Made by a program: the position numbers and the translations under genes. The notes below the pieces were generated by a model. It searched no databases. It was not told the origin of the DNA and saw only the letters and a list, made by a program, of their open reading frames with translations. Source: an uncultured Lachnospiraceae bacterium (GTDB lineage: Bacteria; Bacillota; Clostridia; Lachnospirales; Lachnospiraceae). Taken from it: DNA of 49,415 bases. The DNA lies in the NCBI GenBank assembly GCA_949447165.1, contig CASTAV010000003.1, positions 1 through 49,415 of the forward strand, written 5' to 3'. Of this stretch, positions 29,654 through 36,522 are shown one piece after another (position 1 is the first letter of the stretch; each line of letters opens with the position of its first letter).

Positions 29654-32326
29654 CTAACTGCCCCTATATTGATAACAGATAAAACTCCCCCAATGTTTCG
29701 GCGAACGGTAAAGTAAAAAGTCGTCCCAAAGCCCTTCCATGTAAGAAAAAACATCTTCTTGTATGTTCTCAAAAAACTTTTGATCGGATGTAAGCCTCTC
29801 TTTTACCTGTCCCACTGTTGTGTCCCTCAGTTTTTTTCTCGCAGACTGAAGCGCTGCCGGAATCAAATCCCCCTGATTTAATCTTTCATAAAAATAAAAC
29901 ATAAAAAGCGCCGCCGCTAAATCATCTACTTCCCACAAAGCAGAGACGACATAATGAACTCCCGCAGCGCCAAACGCCACATGAAGCCCTGTCTGCCATT
30001 CAAATTTCGTAAACAGGCTGCTGCCGGAATGACAGGCAGACAAAACCGCTAACTTTGTCCCCGTCAACTGCATTCTGCTTATTTCTTCCGCTGTTAATAT
30101 CCCGTCCCCATATTCAAAAGATTCTTTTCCTGTTTGTAAATAATCTAGCATTCCGGAAAATGCGAGCGAACTTTCATACCATGGATTCTCCTTCTCCTGC
30201 ATATGTATCCCATGGGTGGCAATATGTAAAAAACGGTATCCGGGTTTTAACCGGCGTTTGGAAACTGCCCTCCCGACATAGCATTCACCACCGAAAAAAT
30301 CCGCTATTTTTTCTGCCTCATAACCACTGAACGGAAGCGGCGAAATTTCCTGAATATAGCGGAGCGATGCATTCTGCCCTGTCAGATTTCTATTTTCTGA
30401 CAGGCAAAACGCAGGATTTCCTATGATACAAGATTTCTTCATTGAAGGATTCCCTTCTTGCCAAACTTCAAAAATATCCCGGAAAGATTGAAAATAAACG
30501 ACTGGAATCCCAAAATATCCGCTATCCGCAGCTTCAAACAAAACTTCAAACGGAAGATTGCAAAGACATTGATCCGGAGACGCCCAGATTTGCCCGGCAT
30601 CTTTTAATTCCGTCTCTAATTCTCCGAATATATGGCAAAATAGTTCCCTTGCAAATTTTTTGCAGTTCCCTTTCGCATCCCTGACGCATTGAAGAAACCT
30701 CTGTATGCCTTCTTCCAAGTCAAAGATTTTTTCGATTCTCCGGCAGACAGGCGCTTTTCCTTTTCTTTTTACAAATATTTCCAGACATACATCTTTTTTC
30801 GTAGCCGAAACGGCATTCCCAGACCAAACCGCCTCCCGATCCATATATAAAAACTCTACTAAAACGGCATGTTCTGGCATTTGTTCTTCTAACTTTTGGT
30901 ATGAATAATACGGAATCTCCCCTTTTCGTTTCACCCTGCGGGCTGCGCCAGAGCATCGATTTCTGGCGCGCAGTACAGAACAAAGGATATTTTTATAATT
31001 TATACTATATTCCAGCCTTTTTTCAGAAGACGTGACGTCCATCACAGCCGCATACGCCAAATGAAACGCCGCCTTGCAAATGGTTAAATACTGTTCCATC
31101 TGCGCGTTGTCCTCGTAATACTCCGCCATGGAATAAAACTCAGCCATCTTTTCCAATAAACTGCCCGCGCACCAAAGCAGTTTTTTTTCGTCCGCATTCT
31201 TCTTATACTCGCATATAGCCCTTCCCATAATAGAAAAATATGCTTGCCTGTCCACCTCAAAAATCTCCGCTTTCATAAGCGTAAGAATGCTTTTATCCAG
31301 ATAATGCATCGGATACCGGCCTCCAAGCGCCTTTTCAAAATAATAGCAAAACTGATAAAAACTGCTGCGCGCCCATGGCGCGTAGCTCAAAAACTCCCTG
31401 TCCTGATTTATTTGCTTTTTTACTTTTTCAATTTCCCTAATCTGCTTTTTAGGAATCTTTTGGTTCTTTTGATCCATTTGCAATAAATAACTGCCATACA
31501 CATATAACATATAATCCTCTTTGCAAACGCGCCGGACAAACCCCGATTCCACGCATTTCCGGATAAACGCATATGCTTCGTCAGAGCGAAGCATCGTTTC
31601 CAACAAAACGGCATAATCCGCCACAAGCCTTTGTATATCCAGCATAAATGGACGTATTGCTTCTTTTGCGGCAAGCTTATCCAACAGAAAACGGCAAACT
31701 GTCTCTGCCTGAACAGCTTTACGGGAAAACACATACTGATGCGCCAGATGGACAAGCGCGCAAAACGCATATTGTGACAGAGGTTCTTGCCTATCCAAAT
31801 GCAGAAATACTTTTTCAAGGCTAGCTTCCGCAAGTGACGTTTTTCCCGTTTTTGCATAAAAAACGCCAAGCGCCCCATATACAAAAGCATACAGATCTTC
31901 CCCGTCTAACTCATCCCGCCGTTCCCGTTCCACAAACTCCGCCAATTCGTTCGCCAGACCTTCATAACCGGAAAACGATTCCTGCCTCCCATACTGTTTT
32001 TGGAGTATATGTGCCAAACCTCTGATATACATCTCTTTTATAAGAGAAAATGGCAGTTCCACAGATTCTTTTGCCTGCGCCAAATGCCGGCTTAACGCAT
32101 TGCAGAGAAAATCCATATCCGCTTTTTTATCATATAGCAGATGTAAAATTAACGTATTATATTCCACAATCCAGTCTTTATACGCCTGTGAACCCAAAAA
32201 AGCCGTTTGTCTGGCTTTTTTTAAGCATCGGAACGCTTTTTTTATGTTTCCTTTCCGCTCTGCTTTTGCCGTGGCATCAAGCCAACGGAAGAATTCATTT
32301 CTGTCAGTTTCCATCTGCATCCTCAA
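29654..32326 (-). CDS. TPR-like helical repeat protein with C-terminal CHAT (caspase-like) protease domain
   Basis: 890 aa. The C-terminal ~250 aa carry the CHAT His/Cys dyad blocks FLHIATHG and LAVLSACHSG, and the segment FGAAGVHYVVSALWEVDDLAAALFMFYFYERL matches the CHAT consensus closely. The N-terminal ~600 aa are all-helical repeats. Confidence 0.8.
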   Translation of the reverse strand: MRMQMETDRNEFFRWLDATAKAERKGNIKKAFRCLKKARQTAFLGSQAYKDWIVEYNTLILHLLYDKKADMDFLCNALSRHLAQAKESVELPFSLIKEMYIRGLAHILQKQYGRQESFSGYEGLANELAEFVERERRDELDGEDLYAFVYGALGVFYAKTGKTSLAEASLEKVFLHLDRQEPLSQYAFCALVHLAHQYVFSRKAVQAETVCRFLLDKLAAKEAIRPFMLDIQRLVADYAVLLETMLRSDEAYAFIRKCVESGFVRRVCKEDYMLYVYGSYLLQMDQKNQKIPKKQIREIEKVKKQINQDREFLSYAPWARSSFYQFCYYFEKALGGRYPMHYLDKSILTLMKAEIFEVDRQAYFSIMGRAICEYKKNADEKKLLWCAGSLLEKMAEFYSMAEYYEDNAQMEQYLTICKAAFHLAYAAVMDVTSSEKRLEYSINYKNILCSVLRARNRCSGAARRVKRKGEIPYYSYQKLEEQMPEHAVLVEFLYMDREAVWSGNAVSATKKDVCLEIFVKRKGKAPVCRRIEKIFDLEEGIQRFLQCVRDAKGNCKKFARELFCHIFGELETELKDAGQIWASPDQCLCNLPFEVLFEAADSGYFGIPVVYFQSFRDIFEVWQEGNPSMKKSCIIGNPAFCLSENRNLTGQNASLRYIQEISPLPFSGYEAEKIADFFGGECYVGRAVSKRRLKPGYRFLHIATHGIHMQEKENPWYESSLAFSGMLDYLQTGKESFEYGDGILTAEEISRMQLTGTKLAVLSACHSGSSLFTKFEWQTGLHVAFGAAGVHYVVSALWEVDDLAAALFMFYFYERLNQGDLIPAALQSARKKLRDTTVGQVKERLTSDQKFFENIQEDVFSYMEGLWDDFLLYRSPKHWGSFICYQYRGS

Positions 32327-32885
32327 TAATTTCTATCACAGTTTCCCCATGAAATTCTTCCGTATTTAGGATAACCTGATAACAGTCTTTGTCCGCATGG
32401 TAAACAAAATCATACGTTTTTTCACCATGATCCGTCTGAACCCTGACAACGAAAGCGCCAGCGGAAAATTCCTCTGCATCAAACTGAATCACAACTTGTG
32501 TTTGACTGCATTCTATGAAAGAATACTCGCCCTTTCTGCTGATAAATGTTTCTGTCTGCATTTTTTTGCCGCCGCTTCTGGATGCGGCAGGCATTGGCAG
32601 GCGGACAAATTCCCAGTTTGAATGAAACGTTTCCTTTTTTTGCTGTATCATTTCATAGATTCCCGCCGCTGCTTTTAGGGCAAAAACAACTCTCTTTTCT
32701 GATTCCGGCGGCAGTAAACCATGCGCAGATAATTGTTTTTGCAACACATACTGCGCGCAGAATATCTCATAACAGCGGTCACAATCCGCCATATGTTTTT
32801 TTAACTCTAACTGCCTGTCATTTAAACGTTCCTCTTTTACATAAGCTTCTGAAAGATTCCTAAGATCCTCCTCTGATATGTGCAT
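32304..32885 (-). CDS. zinc-finger (zf-HC2) anti-sigma factor
   Basis: 193 aa with the N-terminal zf-HC2 signature H-x3-C-x2-C (LELKKHMADCDRCYEIF). It sits immediately downstream of a sigma-70-like gene, with a 1-nt spacing. Confidence 0.6.
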   Translation of the reverse strand: MHISEEDLRNLSEAYVKEERLNDRQLELKKHMADCDRCYEIFCAQYVLQKQLSAHGLLPPESEKRVVFALKAAAGIYEMIQQKKETFHSNWEFVRLPMPAASRSGGKKMQTETFISRKGEYSFIECSQTQVVIQFDAEEFSAGAFVVRVQTDHGEKTYDFVYHADKDCYQVILNTEEFHGETVIEIIEDADGN

Positions 32886-33899
32886 TTAACCCTCCCGCCT
32901 GCAAAAGATATCCTCTGCTATGCCAATGCTTTTTTTACGGAATATATTATCCGCTAAAGCAAGTTTTTCTGTTTCATTTTTCAGGTTTTTTGCTATCCGA
33001 AGCGGCCAATTTTTCATTGCGTTTTTGGAAAATGTATCTGTGATGACAAGCTGTTTGACCGGACTGCCCTTATATTCTTTTTCCATATTTTCCTCATAAG
33101 CCCTTCCCCACCGGAATTGACTTTCGCTAAGCGGCTCTAAATGGTAAATTTCCAAAAACTCCCGGTTTAACAGTTCCGACGTCTGCCGATACATTGCGGA
33201 TATGGCAAAGTTCATCAGTATCACGCTGTTTCTAGTGATTTCTCCTTCAAGCCTGCCTGTTTTTTCATTGTAACGCGAAGCATCCCCATCTGTTTTCCTT
33301 GCGCCAATTACGTTTAATTTTTTCAACAGTTCTTTGTTGTCAGTTCGTTTTATTAGCTGTGGAACCAAAATAGCATAACAGTAGGTAAGCGTCTGATAAG
33401 GCGGGGCTTTCGTCTCTTTCAGCGCTTTTACATAAAACTCAAATATGCGGCGTATCACGGATAACCGTTCCTGTTCGATATAAGCGCTTTCCATCTGTTC
33501 CGATTCACCGCCTGTTTCGAATATACCGTTTTCCGGCTCTTTCGGTATAAATTCCTTTTTTGCAAAATGCCTCTTTCTGTAATTTTGGCAGCATATTTCC
33601 GCCAACCCGATCAAATACCCATAAAACCCTTCTGACGTCACTTTTTCAGGAAACCCGCGAAACGCCAGCTTCATCACTTCCATCCGGATTTCCTGCATCA
33701 CATCATCTAACGCTTCCGGCTGGCATATGCCATATGCGCGAAGCCTTTTTGCCGCCATTTCATAGGTATTGTCGCTTAAAATCTGAAGCGCTTTTTCCAA
33801 TGCGGATTTATCATTCCGCATTATCGGATCATATAAACGGCTTATGGCGCGCCCGGCATCCTCTCCTTCATAAAGCGCCTGATTATTTTCCTTTTCCAT
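32886..33899 (-). CDS. sigma-70 family (ECF-like region-2 N-terminus) sigma factor-like protein with extended C-terminal region
   Basis: 337 aa. A region-2-like segment ALDDVMQEIRMEVMKLAFRG...FYGYLIGLAEICCQNYRKR is present. It is paired with the downstream zf-HC2 anti-sigma factor. The length is atypical for an ECF sigma. Confidence 0.4.
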   Translation of the reverse strand: MEKENNQALYEGEDAGRAISRLYDPIMRNDKSALEKALQILSDNTYEMAAKRLRAYGICQPEALDDVMQEIRMEVMKLAFRGFPEKVTSEGFYGYLIGLAEICCQNYRKRHFAKKEFIPKEPENGIFETGGESEQMESAYIEQERLSVIRRIFEFYVKALKETKAPPYQTLTYCYAILVPQLIKRTDNKELLKKLNVIGARKTDGDASRYNEKTGRLEGEITRNSVILMNFAISAMYRQTSELLNREFLEIYHLEPLSESQFRWGRAYEENMEKEYKGSPVKQLVITDTFSKNAMKNWPLRIAKNLKNETEKLALADNIFRKKSIGIAEDIFCRREG

Positions 33900-33900
33900 A

Positions 33901-34494
33901 TTATTCTCCCGAAATTAATGCTGAAAACTCAATGATATGGTCTGCAAACCCAAATACGACCGCTTCTTTTGCCCTAAAAAAATGATCATATCCGGTTGCC
34001 AGTTCAATTTCTTCTTCTGTCCTTCCCGTATGTTTCGATAGAATTTGTATCAGCCGTCTCTTTGTCTCTAAAATCATTTCCGAAACTGAGCAAATCGTGG
34101 AACTGCTTCCTTGCACCGGATTCCCTAAAAGCGGTTCGTGCGCCATCAATTCACTGTTTGCAAGCATATAGCGGTTTCCTTTTGGGGCGGCGGCAAAAAT
34201 AACTGCGCCCATACTGTACGCTTTTCCCAGACAATACATTTTTAGCGGAGTCTGGCAAGTGGCAACTGCATCGTAAATGAGCAGTCCACTGTTTATTTCC
34301 CCTCCCCGCGTGTTTATCATAATCCGGATTGGAAGATATTTGTCTTCCACAGTTAAAACCATTAATTTTTTGATAAACTCCATTGCCGCCGCATCGTCAA
34401 TTTCCCCTTCTAAAAAAATAGTCCGCTCTCCAAACAAACAAGTTTCTAAAGGAACCAGCGAAATGCCGTTACTGCTTTTCTTCTGCATATCCAT
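33901..34494 (-). CDS. ClpP-family serine protease (catalytic triad intact)
   Basis: 197 aa. ERTIFLEGEIDDAAA, INTRGGEINSGLLIYDAV, GKAYSMGAVIFAAAPKGNRYMLANSELMAHEPL and a downstream YDHFF segment are present. These align with E. coli ClpP blocks including S97 (GQAASMG), H122 (MIHQP) and D171. Confidence 0.7.
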   Translation of the reverse strand: MDMQKKSSNGISLVPLETCLFGERTIFLEGEIDDAAAMEFIKKLMVLTVEDKYLPIRIMINTRGGEINSGLLIYDAVATCQTPLKMYCLGKAYSMGAVIFAAAPKGNRYMLANSELMAHEPLLGNPVQGSSSTICSVSEMILETKRRLIQILSKHTGRTEEEIELATGYDHFFRAKEAVVFGFADHIIEFSALISGE

Positions 34495-35785
34495 ATCTAT
34501 AACCCCCTGCTTTTATATATTGGTTTATTTGCTTTTGCATTTTTGATTCCTGATCCATCTGTAAAAGTTTTTGATACTCTCTGTCCTTTAATGTTTCATA
34601 GCGCTGTGTCACAATCGGCTTTTGCCCGCGCCGAAAAATATACTCCTGCCCGATTGGCATGGAAAGCACGTCTTCTAGCGGCTGGTTTAACCGCTGGCTG
34701 ATGGATTTTGCCGTTTGTATGTCAACTCCGCCCATATAAATATAAGTGTCGGAATTGTTGATGATAGTCTTTGCATCTTTTTCCCCATATATGGAATCCA
34801 ACTGGCTTTCGCTTTGGAGAAGCAAGGTGACGGAGATCCCTTTTTCCCTGAATATTGAAATGTATTCAGCAAAATTCGCGATTTTTGATCCACAGGCAAA
34901 ATCGTCGCACAGCACATGCACTGGGCGGTTTAACTGGCCAGATTCATTTTTTTCTCCGATTTCAAATAATTCTTTAAACATCTGGCTGTAAAAAATATTT
35001 ACAAAACTGTTTAGCGATGGGTTCACCGGAGAAGTTGTGACAAATAAAAGGGTTTTTTCATCGGATATTTTTTTAAAATCCACCTTTTCCGCTTTTTGCA
35101 TCATTCCACAGAGTTGTGGGGTAAAAATCGTGTTTAAAGCTACGGAAAGCGTAGAATAAATACAACTGGAAGTGCGGACAGGCATCTGATGGAAAGAATC
35201 CCAACAGCAAATAGCAAAACAATGCGGATCAGCCTGCCGGATCACCTCAAAATCTTCATCAAGTGAAGTTTCTATCAGATCACTGCCTTTTATAATGCGT
35301 AAATCTTTAAACAGGGATATTACATCTGCCATAGTTCCGTGTTCTTTTGTCATCAGCACATGGGCGATCAGCGCTGACAACAGGCTTATGCTCGCATGAT
35401 CCCAATATGGGTCTGAACTTGAATTTTTTTTCCTGCTGTCTGCCATAACGATTGCTTCCGCAAGATAAGTAACGTCTGTCCAGCTCTTAAGATATTGAAG
35501 CGGATCATAGGAAATTTCCGATTTTTCTGGAGAAACAAAGTTCAGATCTAGGACTTTATAGCCCCTTGTCTGAAAAAGTTTTATGTATTTTGCAATCAGC
35601 CTGCGTTTGGACAAAGTCATAATCAGACTGGAATGATAAGTATGCAGCAGCCTTGGCTCTGAAATAGACATCGTCTTTCCTGAGCCACTGCTTCCACAAA
35701 CAAGGACATTGTTATTAATCTTCGTTTCCCTGCAGTCTGCGCTAAATACTGCATTTTTCCCTAAAACAACAGTATCTTTTCTCAT
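34469..35785 (-). CDS. soluble TraG/TraD/VirD4-family (type IV coupling protein-like) P-loop ATPase
   Basis: The start is the MRKDTVVLGKN methionine (ATG 35783-35785), with a GGGAGG RBS 7 nt upstream. It overlaps the upstream gene's stop as ATGA. Walker A VLVCGSSGSGKTMS is present. The C-terminal T4CP block VLCDDFACGSKIANFAEYISIFREKGISVTLLLQSESQLDSIYGEKDAKTIINNSDTYIYMGGVDIQTAKSIS matches the TraG-D_C pattern (LDEF..lgkip.....RsrGi...lilQs.sQL...YG......i..n.......G..d..Ta). There is no N-terminal TM segment. Confidence 0.55.
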   Translation of the reverse strand: MRKDTVVLGKNAVFSADCRETKINNNVLVCGSSGSGKTMSISEPRLLHTYHSSLIMTLSKRRLIAKYIKLFQTRGYKVLDLNFVSPEKSEISYDPLQYLKSWTDVTYLAEAIVMADSRKKNSSSDPYWDHASISLLSALIAHVLMTKEHGTMADVISLFKDLRIIKGSDLIETSLDEDFEVIRQADPHCFAICCWDSFHQMPVRTSSCIYSTLSVALNTIFTPQLCGMMQKAEKVDFKKISDEKTLLFVTTSPVNPSLNSFVNIFYSQMFKELFEIGEKNESGQLNRPVHVLCDDFACGSKIANFAEYISIFREKGISVTLLLQSESQLDSIYGEKDAKTIINNSDTYIYMGGVDIQTAKSISQRLNQPLEDVLSMPIGQEYIFRRGQKPIVTQRYETLKDREYQKLLQMDQESKMQKQINQYIKAGGYRYGYAEEKQ

Positions 35786-36297
35786 AACGGCGCCTCCCAG
35801 AACGGATTTAAACGAATTTGGCTCAGTTTTAGACTGGTTTTTGATCCGACCGCTCCTTGTTTTAGAATGTTCTGTACACATTCTGCATAATTCATGGTAA
35901 TATTTGTTGCAAAACGGAACACAGACTGCAAATTTTCTATAAAACCATTTACGCTTTCCCTTCCTTTCGGCTGGTACAGCATCATCTGGTATTCTGCCAC
36001 CAAATCATTCTCGTTTGTCATATAAATGCGCATGTACAGCCATTCATTCTGCAAATCGTTTATCAATTTATAAATTTCCCTATGACGGTTCTCTGGAATC
36101 CCTTCTGCAAGACATGTGACAATCCGGATAATTTTACTTTTCTCACTTACGGATACATTCATCTTTAGGGAATGGCAGGGGTTGCCATAAGATAAACTAT
36201 ATTTGATAAATCCTTCTTTGTCGCGCTCCTCTGTGTTCGATACTTTCCCAAATTGGTTTAATACTTGTTTTACAATTTCCTGATAAGCGGCTGCCAT
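35782..36297 (-). CDS. first gene of the operon; possible YbjN-family (T3SS-chaperone-like fold) protein
   Basis: 171-aa acidic protein with an AGGAGG RBS 7 nt upstream. The family assignment is weak, from the pattern only. Confidence 0.3.
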   Translation of the reverse strand: MAAAYQEIVKQVLNQFGKVSNTEERDKEGFIKYSLSYGNPCHSLKMNVSVSEKSKIIRIVTCLAEGIPENRHREIYKLINDLQNEWLYMRIYMTNENDLVAEYQMMLYQPKGRESVNGFIENLQSVFRFATNITMNYAECVQNILKQGAVGSKTSLKLSQIRLNPFWEAPL

Positions 36298-36378: not shown

Positions 36379-36522
36379 CCGTCTTTTTGCTTTTCTTTCG
36401 CTGTCTTTTTTATTTTTCTTTCTCTATCTTTTTTGTTTTTCTTTCGCTGTCCTTTTGCTTTTCTTTCGCTGTCTTTTTACTTTTCTTTCGCTGTCTTTTT
36501 ACTCTTTTCGCTTTTTATGACT
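36379..36522. repeat. six imperfect tandem copies of a ~22-bp unit (gtctttttgcttttctttcgct) in the intergenic region upstream of the vault-like operon
   Basis: Direct reading: gtctttttgcttttctttcgct / gtcttttttatttttctttctcta / tcttttttgtttttctttcgct / gtccttttgcttttctttcgct / gtctttttacttttctttcgct / gtctttttactcttttcgct. Confidence 0.7.

Follow-up and report, generated by a model that had tools for sequence, protein, structure and literature searches.

The stretch of DNA analysed here (the window; 49,415 nt) covers positions 1 to 49,415, forward strand, of contig CASTAV010000003.1 in the assembly of an uncultured Lachnospiraceae bacterium (GenBank GCA_949447165.1). On its minus strand, the gene for a ClpP-family serine peptidase overlaps that for a P-loop ATPase which resembles the type IV coupling proteins (VirD4/TrwB type) but carries no membrane anchor. 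As far as we know, every characterized ClpP partner is an AAA+ unfoldase. The strongest statement that the data allow is that this ClpP and the anchorless ATPase form a co-inherited functional unit, distinct from both conjugation and housekeeping ClpXP.

The gene row and the ClpP/ATPase pair

The pair and the features around it are as follows, in the order of transcription.

36381–36500, minus strand: direct-repeat array, about five copies of 22–23 nt (Tandem Repeats Finder, TRF)
35782–36297, minus strand: peptide-binding protein of the TY-Chap1/YbjN type, 171 residues, similar to the chaperones of type III secretion systems (T3SS) (Pfam TY-Chap1)
34469–35785, minus strand: soluble P-loop ATPase like type IV coupling proteins (VirD4/TrwB type), 438 residues (Pfam, NCBIfam, AlphaFold2 model)
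33901–34494, minus strand: ClpP-family serine peptidase, 197 residues, a divergent paralogue (Pfam CLP_protease, alignments)
32886–33899, minus strand: protein of 337 residues with a segment like region 2 of extracytoplasmic function (ECF) sigma factors (NCBIfam, hhalign against E. coli RpoE)
32304–32885, minus strand: protein of 193 residues with an N-terminal HxxxCxxC, similar to zf-HC2/ZAS anti-sigma factors (alignment, weak profile matches)
29654–32326, minus strand: caspase-like CHAT-domain protease, 890 residues (Pfam CHAT)
27249–29642, minus strand: protein like the major vault protein (MVP), 797 residues (Pfam MVP_shoulder)
23062–27234, minus strand: surface-type protein, 1390 residues, with Big_2, Listeria-Bacteroides repeats and CarboxypepD_reg (domain matches)

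All genes around the pair lie on the minus strand in a tightly packed row, in which neighbours overlap or are separated by no more than 12 nt. In the sequence ATGA, the stop codon of the chaperone gene and the start codon of the ATPase gene overlap, and a GGGAGG Shine-Dalgarno sequence sits 7 nt upstream of that start. The assignment of the start to position 35785 (MRKDT...) is backed by both features and by a 99%-identical database protein of 438 residues. The ClpP gene begins at an ATG (34494) within the ATPase gene, 26 nt before the end of the latter, and GGGGG precedes this ATG by 8 nt. Further downstream, the spacing is 1 nt to the gene for the 337-residue protein and 0 nt to that for the 193-residue protein; the latter overlaps the CHAT gene, the start of which is uncertain (TTG at 32326, or ATG at 32320 or 32314), and 12 nt separate the CHAT and MVP-like genes. 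A promoter and terminator scan of 22.5–37.5 kb gave no informative terminator inside the row.

An earlier reading, made by a model from the letters and their translations (hereafter the sequence-only reading), had drawn attention to the pair, and its description of the locus holds. The 26-nt overlap agrees with the translational coupling it had claimed. The motifs it had quoted are all present in the translations: GKAYSMG, MAHEP and YDHFF in the 197-residue open reading frame (ORF) 34494–33901 (minus strand), and LLLQSESQLDSIYG and NSDTYIYMGG in the ORF ending at 34469 (minus strand). It had also stated that no AAA+ Clp ATPase is nearby, and no ClpX/ClpA/ClpC-type domain was found among the 41 ORFs of the window scanned against Pfam, which comprise most ORFs of at least 110 residues.

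Conservation and properties of the two partners

Protein searches with the ATPase returned 1242 homologues, the best 120 of which are mostly soluble proteins of ~420 residues from gut Lachnospiraceae/Ruminococcus-type sources. By taking one genome per species, we assembled 80 loci with an ATPase relative of 45–76% identity, from Lachnospiraceae, Oscillospiraceae, Ruminococcus, Christensenellaceae, Selenomonadaceae and Lachnoanaerobaculum. A ClpP homologue of the same clade (E 1e-50 to 1e-89) directly adjoins the ATPase in 75 of the 80 genomes, and two of the remaining five are contig edges. The relationship also holds in the other direction: searches starting from ClpP gave three further homologues, with the ATPase adjacent wherever the contig extended. 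ClpP is the upstream gene in 72 non-redundant loci and the ATPase in four, those of the window’s subclade; the two genes are a median of 4 nt apart, and in 54 of 76 pairs they overlap or lie within 30 nt of each other. When neighbouring genes were clustered into families, only ClpP and the ATPase were universal, the next commonest family occurring in 17–18 loci, and in at least 12 genomes the two genes form an operon by themselves. The pairwise divergences of the two proteins are correlated as well (Mantel r 0.77, a value that none of 2000 permutations reached). The ATPase family is abundant in human-gut Clostridia, with one member indexed in more than 1000 assembly blocks, and the module occurs widely among Clostridia and Negativicutes of the gut, rumen and oral cavity.

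In public annotation the two proteins appear as ‘conjugal transfer protein’ and ‘Clp protease subunit’, both of which are misleading labels for the pair. Full-text searches of a limited literature collection found no prior description of a ClpP/VirD4-like pair.

The kinship of the ATPase with coupling proteins is well supported. Its Pfam matches are to T4SS-DNA_transf (E 1.5e-36), TraG-D_C (4.5e-19) and TrwB_AAD_bind (4.5e-12), with no Pfam match to FtsK/HerA, and its nearest named family is the VirD4-like conjugal transfer protein, CD1115 family, of NCBIfam (NF045973; 234.6 bits, under the cut-off of 250). An AlphaFold2 model (predicted local distance difference test, pLDDT, 89) found its best Foldseek matches in the PDB in H. 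pylori Cagβ (E 1.5e-16) and TrwB (TM-score 0.67–0.70), while HerA, TdpAB and VirB4 were weaker (E 1e-8 to 1e-7, TM-score 0.38–0.54). The protein groups with the coupling proteins and not with HerA/FtsK, in keeping with the TraG/VirD4-type assignment of the sequence-only reading, which had asked to which of these clades it belongs.

That reading had also noticed the missing membrane anchors. For comparison we took true CD1115 coupling proteins from a C. botulinum plasmid and a Vescimonas replicon, which have 603–623 residues and an N-terminal membrane domain, and are encoded amid relaxase, VirB4, VirB6, PrgI and PcfB genes. The window ATPase consists of the nucleotide-binding domain and the all-alpha domain, without an N-terminal transmembrane domain; its match to the CD1115 proteins starts ~120 residues into the latter, and its maximal Kyte-Doolittle mean over 19 residues is 1.15 (family median 1.19), as opposed to 2.65 and 1.86 in the two CD1115 proteins. 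Mutants of type IV coupling proteins without the transmembrane domain are non-functional in conjugation (PMC7431656).

With TrwB, VirD4/Cagβ and the CD1115 proteins the ATPase shares the Walker A motif (GSSGSGKT), an arginine that aligns with a TrwB arginine (in an R-K-A-G segment) and a Q-S-x-S-Q motif. Unlike them, it is ~120 residues shorter, has a ClpP gene as its partner and no genes for a relaxase or a type IV secretion system (T4SS) nearby, and has Asp-Asp in place of Asp-Glu in its Walker B motif (VLCDDF). This substitution is a property of the family: the residue after the Walker B aspartate is aspartate in 82 of 82 members, whereas TrwB and both CD1115 proteins have the catalytic glutamate. 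In the same census the Walker A lysine is kept in 81 of 82 members and the Walker B aspartate, Arg313 and Gln324 in all 82; Glu314, Glu326, Cys208 and Arg385 are invariant and specific to the family. Since the Walker residues are fixed and the Walker B motif reads Asp-Asp, the nucleotide site is, as judged from the alignment, under strong selection and yet not that of a standard coupling protein.

These data bear on the explanation that the pair is what a decayed conjugative or viral element left behind, that is, a coupling protein or packaging ATPase beside a prohead-type protease, with no joint function. The closest named family is indeed conjugative, integrase or recombinase genes lie near some copies, and ClpP-like prohead proteases exist. 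However, a phmmer screen with MOBP and MobQ relaxases, VirB4 (CD1110), VirB6 (CD1112), PrgI, PcfB, DUF3801 and SLT gave zero matches within ±10 kb of the ATPase in 85 related loci; the relaxase and T4SS genes in related genomes that the sequence-only reading had named as the sign of a conjugative remnant are absent there. The family is 26–28% identical to the true CD1115 proteins, compared with an average of 57% within itself, and its active sites are invariant. Among 72,556 plasmids the best ATPase matches are ~27% identical and are themselves true CD1115 proteins; the best matches in phage records are at most 30% identical, and no relative turned up in a scan of the 2.9 million viral contigs of IMG/VR. 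The neighbourhood has no conserved capsid gene, and the window ClpP is much closer to the ClpP models of NCBIfam (158 bits) than to the prohead-protease models (69 bits). We rejected a conjugation remnant on the missing conjugation genes and on the differences from CD1115 proteins in length, anchor, Walker B and context, and a phage origin as unsupported, on the low identities, the empty IMG/VR scan and the low prohead-protease scores. Joint decay is, in our judgement, very improbable.

As for ClpP, the window protein matches Pfam CLP_protease (PF00574) with E 4.9e-47 over profile positions 12–180 of 182, and PDB entries of ClpP with ~1e-31. Its Ser, His and Asp, which the sequence-only reading had picked out, occupy the catalytic positions in an alignment with M. 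tuberculosis ClpP1. Nevertheless, it falls below every curated NCBIfam cut-off for ClpP: NF009205, the best, gives 157.9 bits (cut-off 228), TIGR00493 130.7 (308.6) and NF001368 150.2 (249).

The docking and gate residues of E. coli ClpP (Tyr60, Tyr62, Phe82 and others) are well established. We aligned 77 linked ClpPs with E. coli ClpP, the numbering of which is self-consistent in the alignment, and with a canonical ClpP encoded beside clpX in one of the surveyed genomes (L041). Ser97, His122, the oxyanion Gly68 and Met98 are kept in 77 of 77 linked ClpPs and Asp171 in 71, a pattern opposite to the catalytically dead ClpP that would have spoken for debris. In contrast to this machinery, the pocket for ClpX, ClpA and acyldepsipeptides (ADEP) is altered: Tyr60 is replaced by Asp, Thr or Asn; Tyr62 by Leu in 51 of 77; and Phe82 by Ser, Gly, Ala or Thr, with an aromatic residue in 0 of 77. 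The N-terminal gate residues Glu8, Arg12, Glu14, Arg15 and Lys25 have been swapped for another conserved, family-specific motif (K-S-S-N-G-I-x-L-V-P), the inter-ring pair Glu169/Arg170 is replaced, and the C-terminal tail is missing. The canonical clpP-clpX pair of L041 (16346–18280, minus strand; ClpX E 7e-156) lies 6 kb from the ClpP/coupling-protein-like pair. Its ClpP serves as an internal control for the comparison, and retains most docking and gate residues; the exceptions are Asn at position 60, Tyr at 82 and Lys at 12. Because this genome has a canonical clpP-clpX as well, the linked ClpP is an additional paralogue, and by its residues a divergent one that is predicted to be catalytically competent.

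Such a paralogue might still work with a housekeeping AAA+ unfoldase (ClpX, ClpC or ClpE), in which case the neighbouring ATPase would be linked to it on other grounds, for instance as an adaptor, inhibitor, substrate or chaperone of that pathway. The presence of a canonical clpP-clpX close to the pair in at least one genome agrees with this explanation, as does the intact catalytic machinery, and mixed ClpP1/ClpP2 rings exist in other bacteria. On the other hand, the aromatics that grip the IGF/LGF loop are gone, the gate residues that touch the pore-2 loops of AAA+ partners have given way to a different motif, and no AAA+ gene is linked to the pair in 81 loci. The loss of the docking residues makes such a partnership less likely, and we rate it as improbable.

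A putative ATP-dependent protease and its adaptors

The third component of the window module is the small protein encoded upstream of the ATPase, which matches Pfam TY-Chap1 (PF22551; E 3e-07, 30.6 bits against a gathering score of 27). In the ~640-residue ATPase homologues P0002 and P0003, a TY-chaperone domain is fused to the ATPase N-terminus, where it occupies the place of the membrane domain in the conjugative relatives. The commonest neighbour family in the survey (~225 residues, upstream of ClpP) is also TY-chaperone-like by iterated hidden Markov model searches, and 32 of 81 loci (~40%) have a TY-chaperone-like gene flanking the pair. T3SS chaperones present unfolded substrates to a ring ATPase, and the ring ATPases of T3SS chaperone/ATPase pairs and of DotL-IcmSW handle unfolded protein substrates. 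Like CesT or SycE with SctN, and like DotL-IcmSW, the present system has a small TY-fold peptide-binding chaperone tied genetically to a ring ATPase; unlike them, it has no secretion apparatus, and its downstream peptidase would destroy rather than export the substrate. We infer that the chaperone is a substrate adaptor. A paper that mentions neither ClpP nor VirD4 (PMC9503650) defined the TY-chaperones as a family of peptide-binding chaperones with kinship to T3SS chaperones and YbjN.

Given the dedicated pairing, we see about an even chance that the ClpP and the anchorless coupling-protein-like ring work together as an ATP-dependent protease, with the ring in place of the AAA+ unfoldase. The ATPase would be a descendant of Firmicute coupling proteins of the VirD4/CD1115 type that has no membrane anchor; as a hexameric ring it would stand where ClpX, ClpA or ClpC otherwise stands, select a protein substrate, and deliver it to the ClpP chamber or gate that chamber, often with the help of a T3SS/YbjN-type peptide-binding chaperone acting as a separate or a fused protein. 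We put forward more tentatively that these loci represent a new class of ATP-dependent protease, in which a coupling-protein-like hexamer powers or gates ClpP, T3SS-type chaperones act as adaptors, and the whole would be a portable unit of regulated proteolysis among variable operons for stress or conflict.

The arrangement has much in common with ClpXP, ClpAP and ClpCP, including a ClpP-fold peptidase with Ser-His-Asp encoded beside, and translationally coupled to, a ring-forming P-loop ATPase, frequent adaptor proteins, and the proposed stacking of a six-fold on a seven-fold ring. It differs in that the ATPase is not AAA+ but of the VirD4/TrwB type within the FtsK-HerA/coupling protein assemblage, with no IGF/LGF loop recognized, and in that the linked ClpP is without the aromatic pocket, the gate residues, the Glu169/Arg170 inter-ring sensor pair and the C-terminal tail.

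Several points weigh against a joint protease. First, the physical complex of the two proteins is something we infer from genomes; so are the translocation of substrates into ClpP, the nature of these substrates and the chaperone’s part as adaptor. Second, three loci (L069, L076 and L083) have sequence on both sides of the ATPase and yet no adjacent ClpP. Third, the change of the Walker B glutamate to aspartate throughout the family may point to slow hydrolysis, or to a protein that acts as a switch and not as a motor. Fourth, no conserved IGF/LGF-like loop or HbYX-like tail was recognized in the ATPase family, and no ClpP-ATPase fusion was found among the top 120 matches of either protein. 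Fifth, known coupling proteins are DNA-stimulated ATPases, so that the ligand could be DNA and not protein. Lastly, the canonical ClpX of L041 is a possible alternative partner in at least that genome. The sequence-only reading had envisaged a translocase ring feeding a ClpP-like chamber and had pointed to an IGF-like docking motif as a check; of this proposal, the dedicated pair stands, adjacent as it is in nearly all of the surveyed genomes and so not debris, and the motif is the part that found no counterpart.

The main rival takes up the last but one of these points. As a DNA-sensing switch, the ring would retain the DNA binding and the DNA-stimulated ATPase activity of TrwB/VirD4, sense foreign or damaged DNA and license ClpP allosterically, as an abortive-infection effector or a regulator, with no threading of protein. 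By fold and by family the ATPase belongs with the coupling proteins of DNA transfer, and the invariant Asp-Asp would fit a slow switch. Neighbours of the kind found in conflict systems (CARF-nuclease, Macro, Zeta toxin, TerD/vWA, a STAND-like NTPase, WYL and recombinases) point the same way. There is also a precedent in the HerA-type rings, which scaffold effectors in known defence complexes and are among the weaker fold matches of the ATPase. Like Sir2-HerA, DUF4297-HerA, TdpAB and NurA-HerA, the pair is a two-gene operon of a non-AAA+ ASCE hexamer (additional strand, conserved glutamate) and an effector enzyme, often in variable islands; unlike them, its effector is a self-compartmentalized peptidase rather than a nuclease or NADase, and the TM-scores to HerA complexes are at most 0.5, as opposed to the values for TrwB given above. 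Other evidence disfavours the switch: a peptide ligand is suggested by how often a TY-chaperone accompanies the ATPase and by the fusions of the two, and the absence of any relative from the viral contigs leaves no direct phage link. PADLOC-DB 2.0 gave no match for ClpP or the TY-chaperone, a weak mad8 match for the ATPase (6.2e-08) and a weak BovA match for the CHAT protein; of 139 operonic neighbours compared with PADLOC, few match CARF-effector models and most are without defence annotation. With nothing convincing in PADLOC, we rejected assignment to a known defence system, and we regard the DNA switch as unlikely, if the foremost of the alternatives.

If the ring and ClpP do form a protease, VirD4/TrwB-type rings would offer a second, independent way to power a compartmentalized protease. 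The module would also be the clearest setting yet in which to test whether coupling proteins unfold and thread polypeptides. In type IV secretion, threading is hard to study owing to the membrane context, whereas here the ring is soluble and proteolysis would provide the readout.

A few observations on the ATPase family may be added. The C-terminal tails are variable and often strongly acidic with aromatic or hydrophobic ends (in L074, L077 and P0002/P0003: ...DDFPDFF, ...DDFFDIF and ...EDLLDE); they are candidate docking or adaptor-binding tails. Two sorts of long homologue were considered as ClpP fusions and rejected: the extra domain of the ~640-residue proteins is the chaperone, and the C-terminal extension of the 728-residue protein of L070 is unrelated. 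In L029 (9336–11323) and L050 (1884–3745) the ATPase frame is open for 70–150 codons upstream of its start, overlapping the ClpP gene in another frame, which is probably incidental, a frameshift fusion being the less likely reading. A second family of ~434-residue anchorless TrwB-like ATPases occurs without ClpP in the same islands (L001, 19036–20337; L013; L018). An OmpA-like protein accompanies it in two of the three loci, as do two unannotated families, and at the L001 locus a JAB-E1 (ThiF) protein and a transglutaminase are encoded too. It may be that soluble coupling-protein-like ATPases were recruited on more than one occasion.

Accessory genes and genomic setting

In the window’s subclade (L002–L006 and L008), the pair is followed by the 337-residue protein, the 193-residue protein and the CHAT protease, with the same gene order in L002–L006; in some relatives (L007–L009), helix-turn-helix (HTH) proteins follow the pair instead. 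The 337-residue family is accessory, occurring in 7 of 81 loci, all of this subclade. Aligned with E. coli RpoE, the family matches sigma region 2 (hhalign, 85% probability, E 6e-6), and the window protein has a weak NCBIfam sigma factor match (E 1e-3); no sigma region 4 was recognized, Pfam and PDB sequence searches gave nothing, and its single-sequence AlphaFold2 model (pLDDT 37.5) was unusable. The HxxxCxxC motif of the 193-residue family is invariant in an alignment of three sequences only, and the matches to zf-HC2 (E 0.085 and 0.0072) and RsrA (E 0.049) are weak. The two proteins can be assigned only weakly as a sigma-like and zinc anti-sigma-like pair. The CHAT protein, found in 6 of 81 loci, carries its CHAT domain at the C-terminus (Pfam E 2.9e-38), and keeps the caspase-type His (HIATHG) and Cys (LSACHSG). 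The N-terminal region is presumed to be TPR-like, with no TPR match in Pfam.

In the window, the module heads an operon of chaperone, ATPase, ClpP, sigma-like protein, zinc anti-sigma-like protein, TPR-CHAT protease and MVP-like protein. From this tightly packed combination of proteases with sigma-like and anti-sigma-like genes we take it that regulated proteolysis may here switch a transcriptional and/or proteolytic response, as in stress or anti-invader conflict systems. The same joining of genes is seen in Csx29 TPR-CHAT/Csx30/sigma (PMC10028731), in CalpL-CalpT-CalpS (10.1101/2024.05.08.593097) and in caspase-ECF sigma conflict systems (PMC8195603). The regulatory reading is plausible because the first two of these protease/anti-sigma/sigma cascades are established in CRISPR-linked defence (PMC10028731; 10.1101/2024.05.08.593097), although the sigma and anti-sigma assignments here are weak and confined to one subclade. 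The window operon differs from those cascades in having no CRISPR or cyclic oligoadenylate (cOA) sensor. Its CHAT protein resembles the Csx29-type architecture without the CRISPR context, and PADLOC detected no similarity of the operon’s proteins to Csx29, Csx30 or CalpT.

The MVP-like protein (Pfam MVP_shoulder, 4.9e-21) has an MVP shoulder, a vault repeat and a C-terminal coiled coil. The sequence-only reading had offered, as an alternative, that the ATPase translocates a substrate, DNA or protein, into a vault-like shell formed by it, and its gene does lie four genes downstream in the same packed row. Yet MVP accompanies the pair in the window only (1 of 81 loci, and absent from the 80 related ones), and the operon of the closest relatives ends at the CHAT gene. 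The MVP-like family itself is large (6344 database matches), and homologues elsewhere stand in unrelated settings without ClpP or the ATPase nearby, such as a phage-like contig (L088, with DNA ligase, RNA ligase and Band_7) and the vicinity of an FtsA/PilM-like gene (L089/L090). Loading of an MVP shell is unsupported by this distribution, and we consider it the least probable of the explanations; the MVP-like gene is a locus-specific addition outside the conserved module. ClpP-class NfeD proteases pair with SPFH/stomatin proteins, which resemble the MVP shoulder in fold; a ClpP-MVP link is not conserved here.

Around the pair in relatives, the operonic neighbours are mostly unannotated. Recurrent domains include YbjN, rhodanese, XRE-type HTH, Macro, Zeta toxin, Card1/NERD nuclease, vWA, TerD/vWA-TerF, Copine, OmpA-like and HD; a giant STAND-like NTPase, WYL, PP2C, JAB-E1 and transglutaminase also occur, and some loci have recombinases or integrases near the pair. 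Such neighbourhoods resemble the variable conflict-system contexts of TY-chaperones (PMC9503650) and caspase/ECF-sigma systems (PMC8195603). In Lachnoanaerobaculum (L071–L080; ~6–9.3 kb and 11.5–13.7 kb), a conserved row surrounds the pair, with Macro-HTH, vWA, a 197-residue protein and rhodanese upstream and a 740-residue PMT_2-like membrane protein downstream, an echo of ADP-ribose-countering systems (PMC9503650).

Two further features flank the window operon. The repeat array, with the core GACAGCGAAAGAAAAG (TRF score 173; four matches against 0.07 expected), sits in the 243-nt intergenic region upstream of the operon’s first gene, that of the chaperone. It was not found in any of 96 fetched loci, and may be an operator array for the operon. 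At the other end, the gene for the 1390-residue surface-type protein begins 14 nt after the MVP-like gene and may be co-transcribed with the operon; it is not in the related loci. Elsewhere the window has the genes of an ordinary Clostridia chromosome: TilS, SpoIIE, YabQ, ProRS, CCA enzyme, MatE, MMPL, lectin/leucine-rich repeat (LRR) surface proteins, a radical SAM enzyme and a Ser/Thr kinase.

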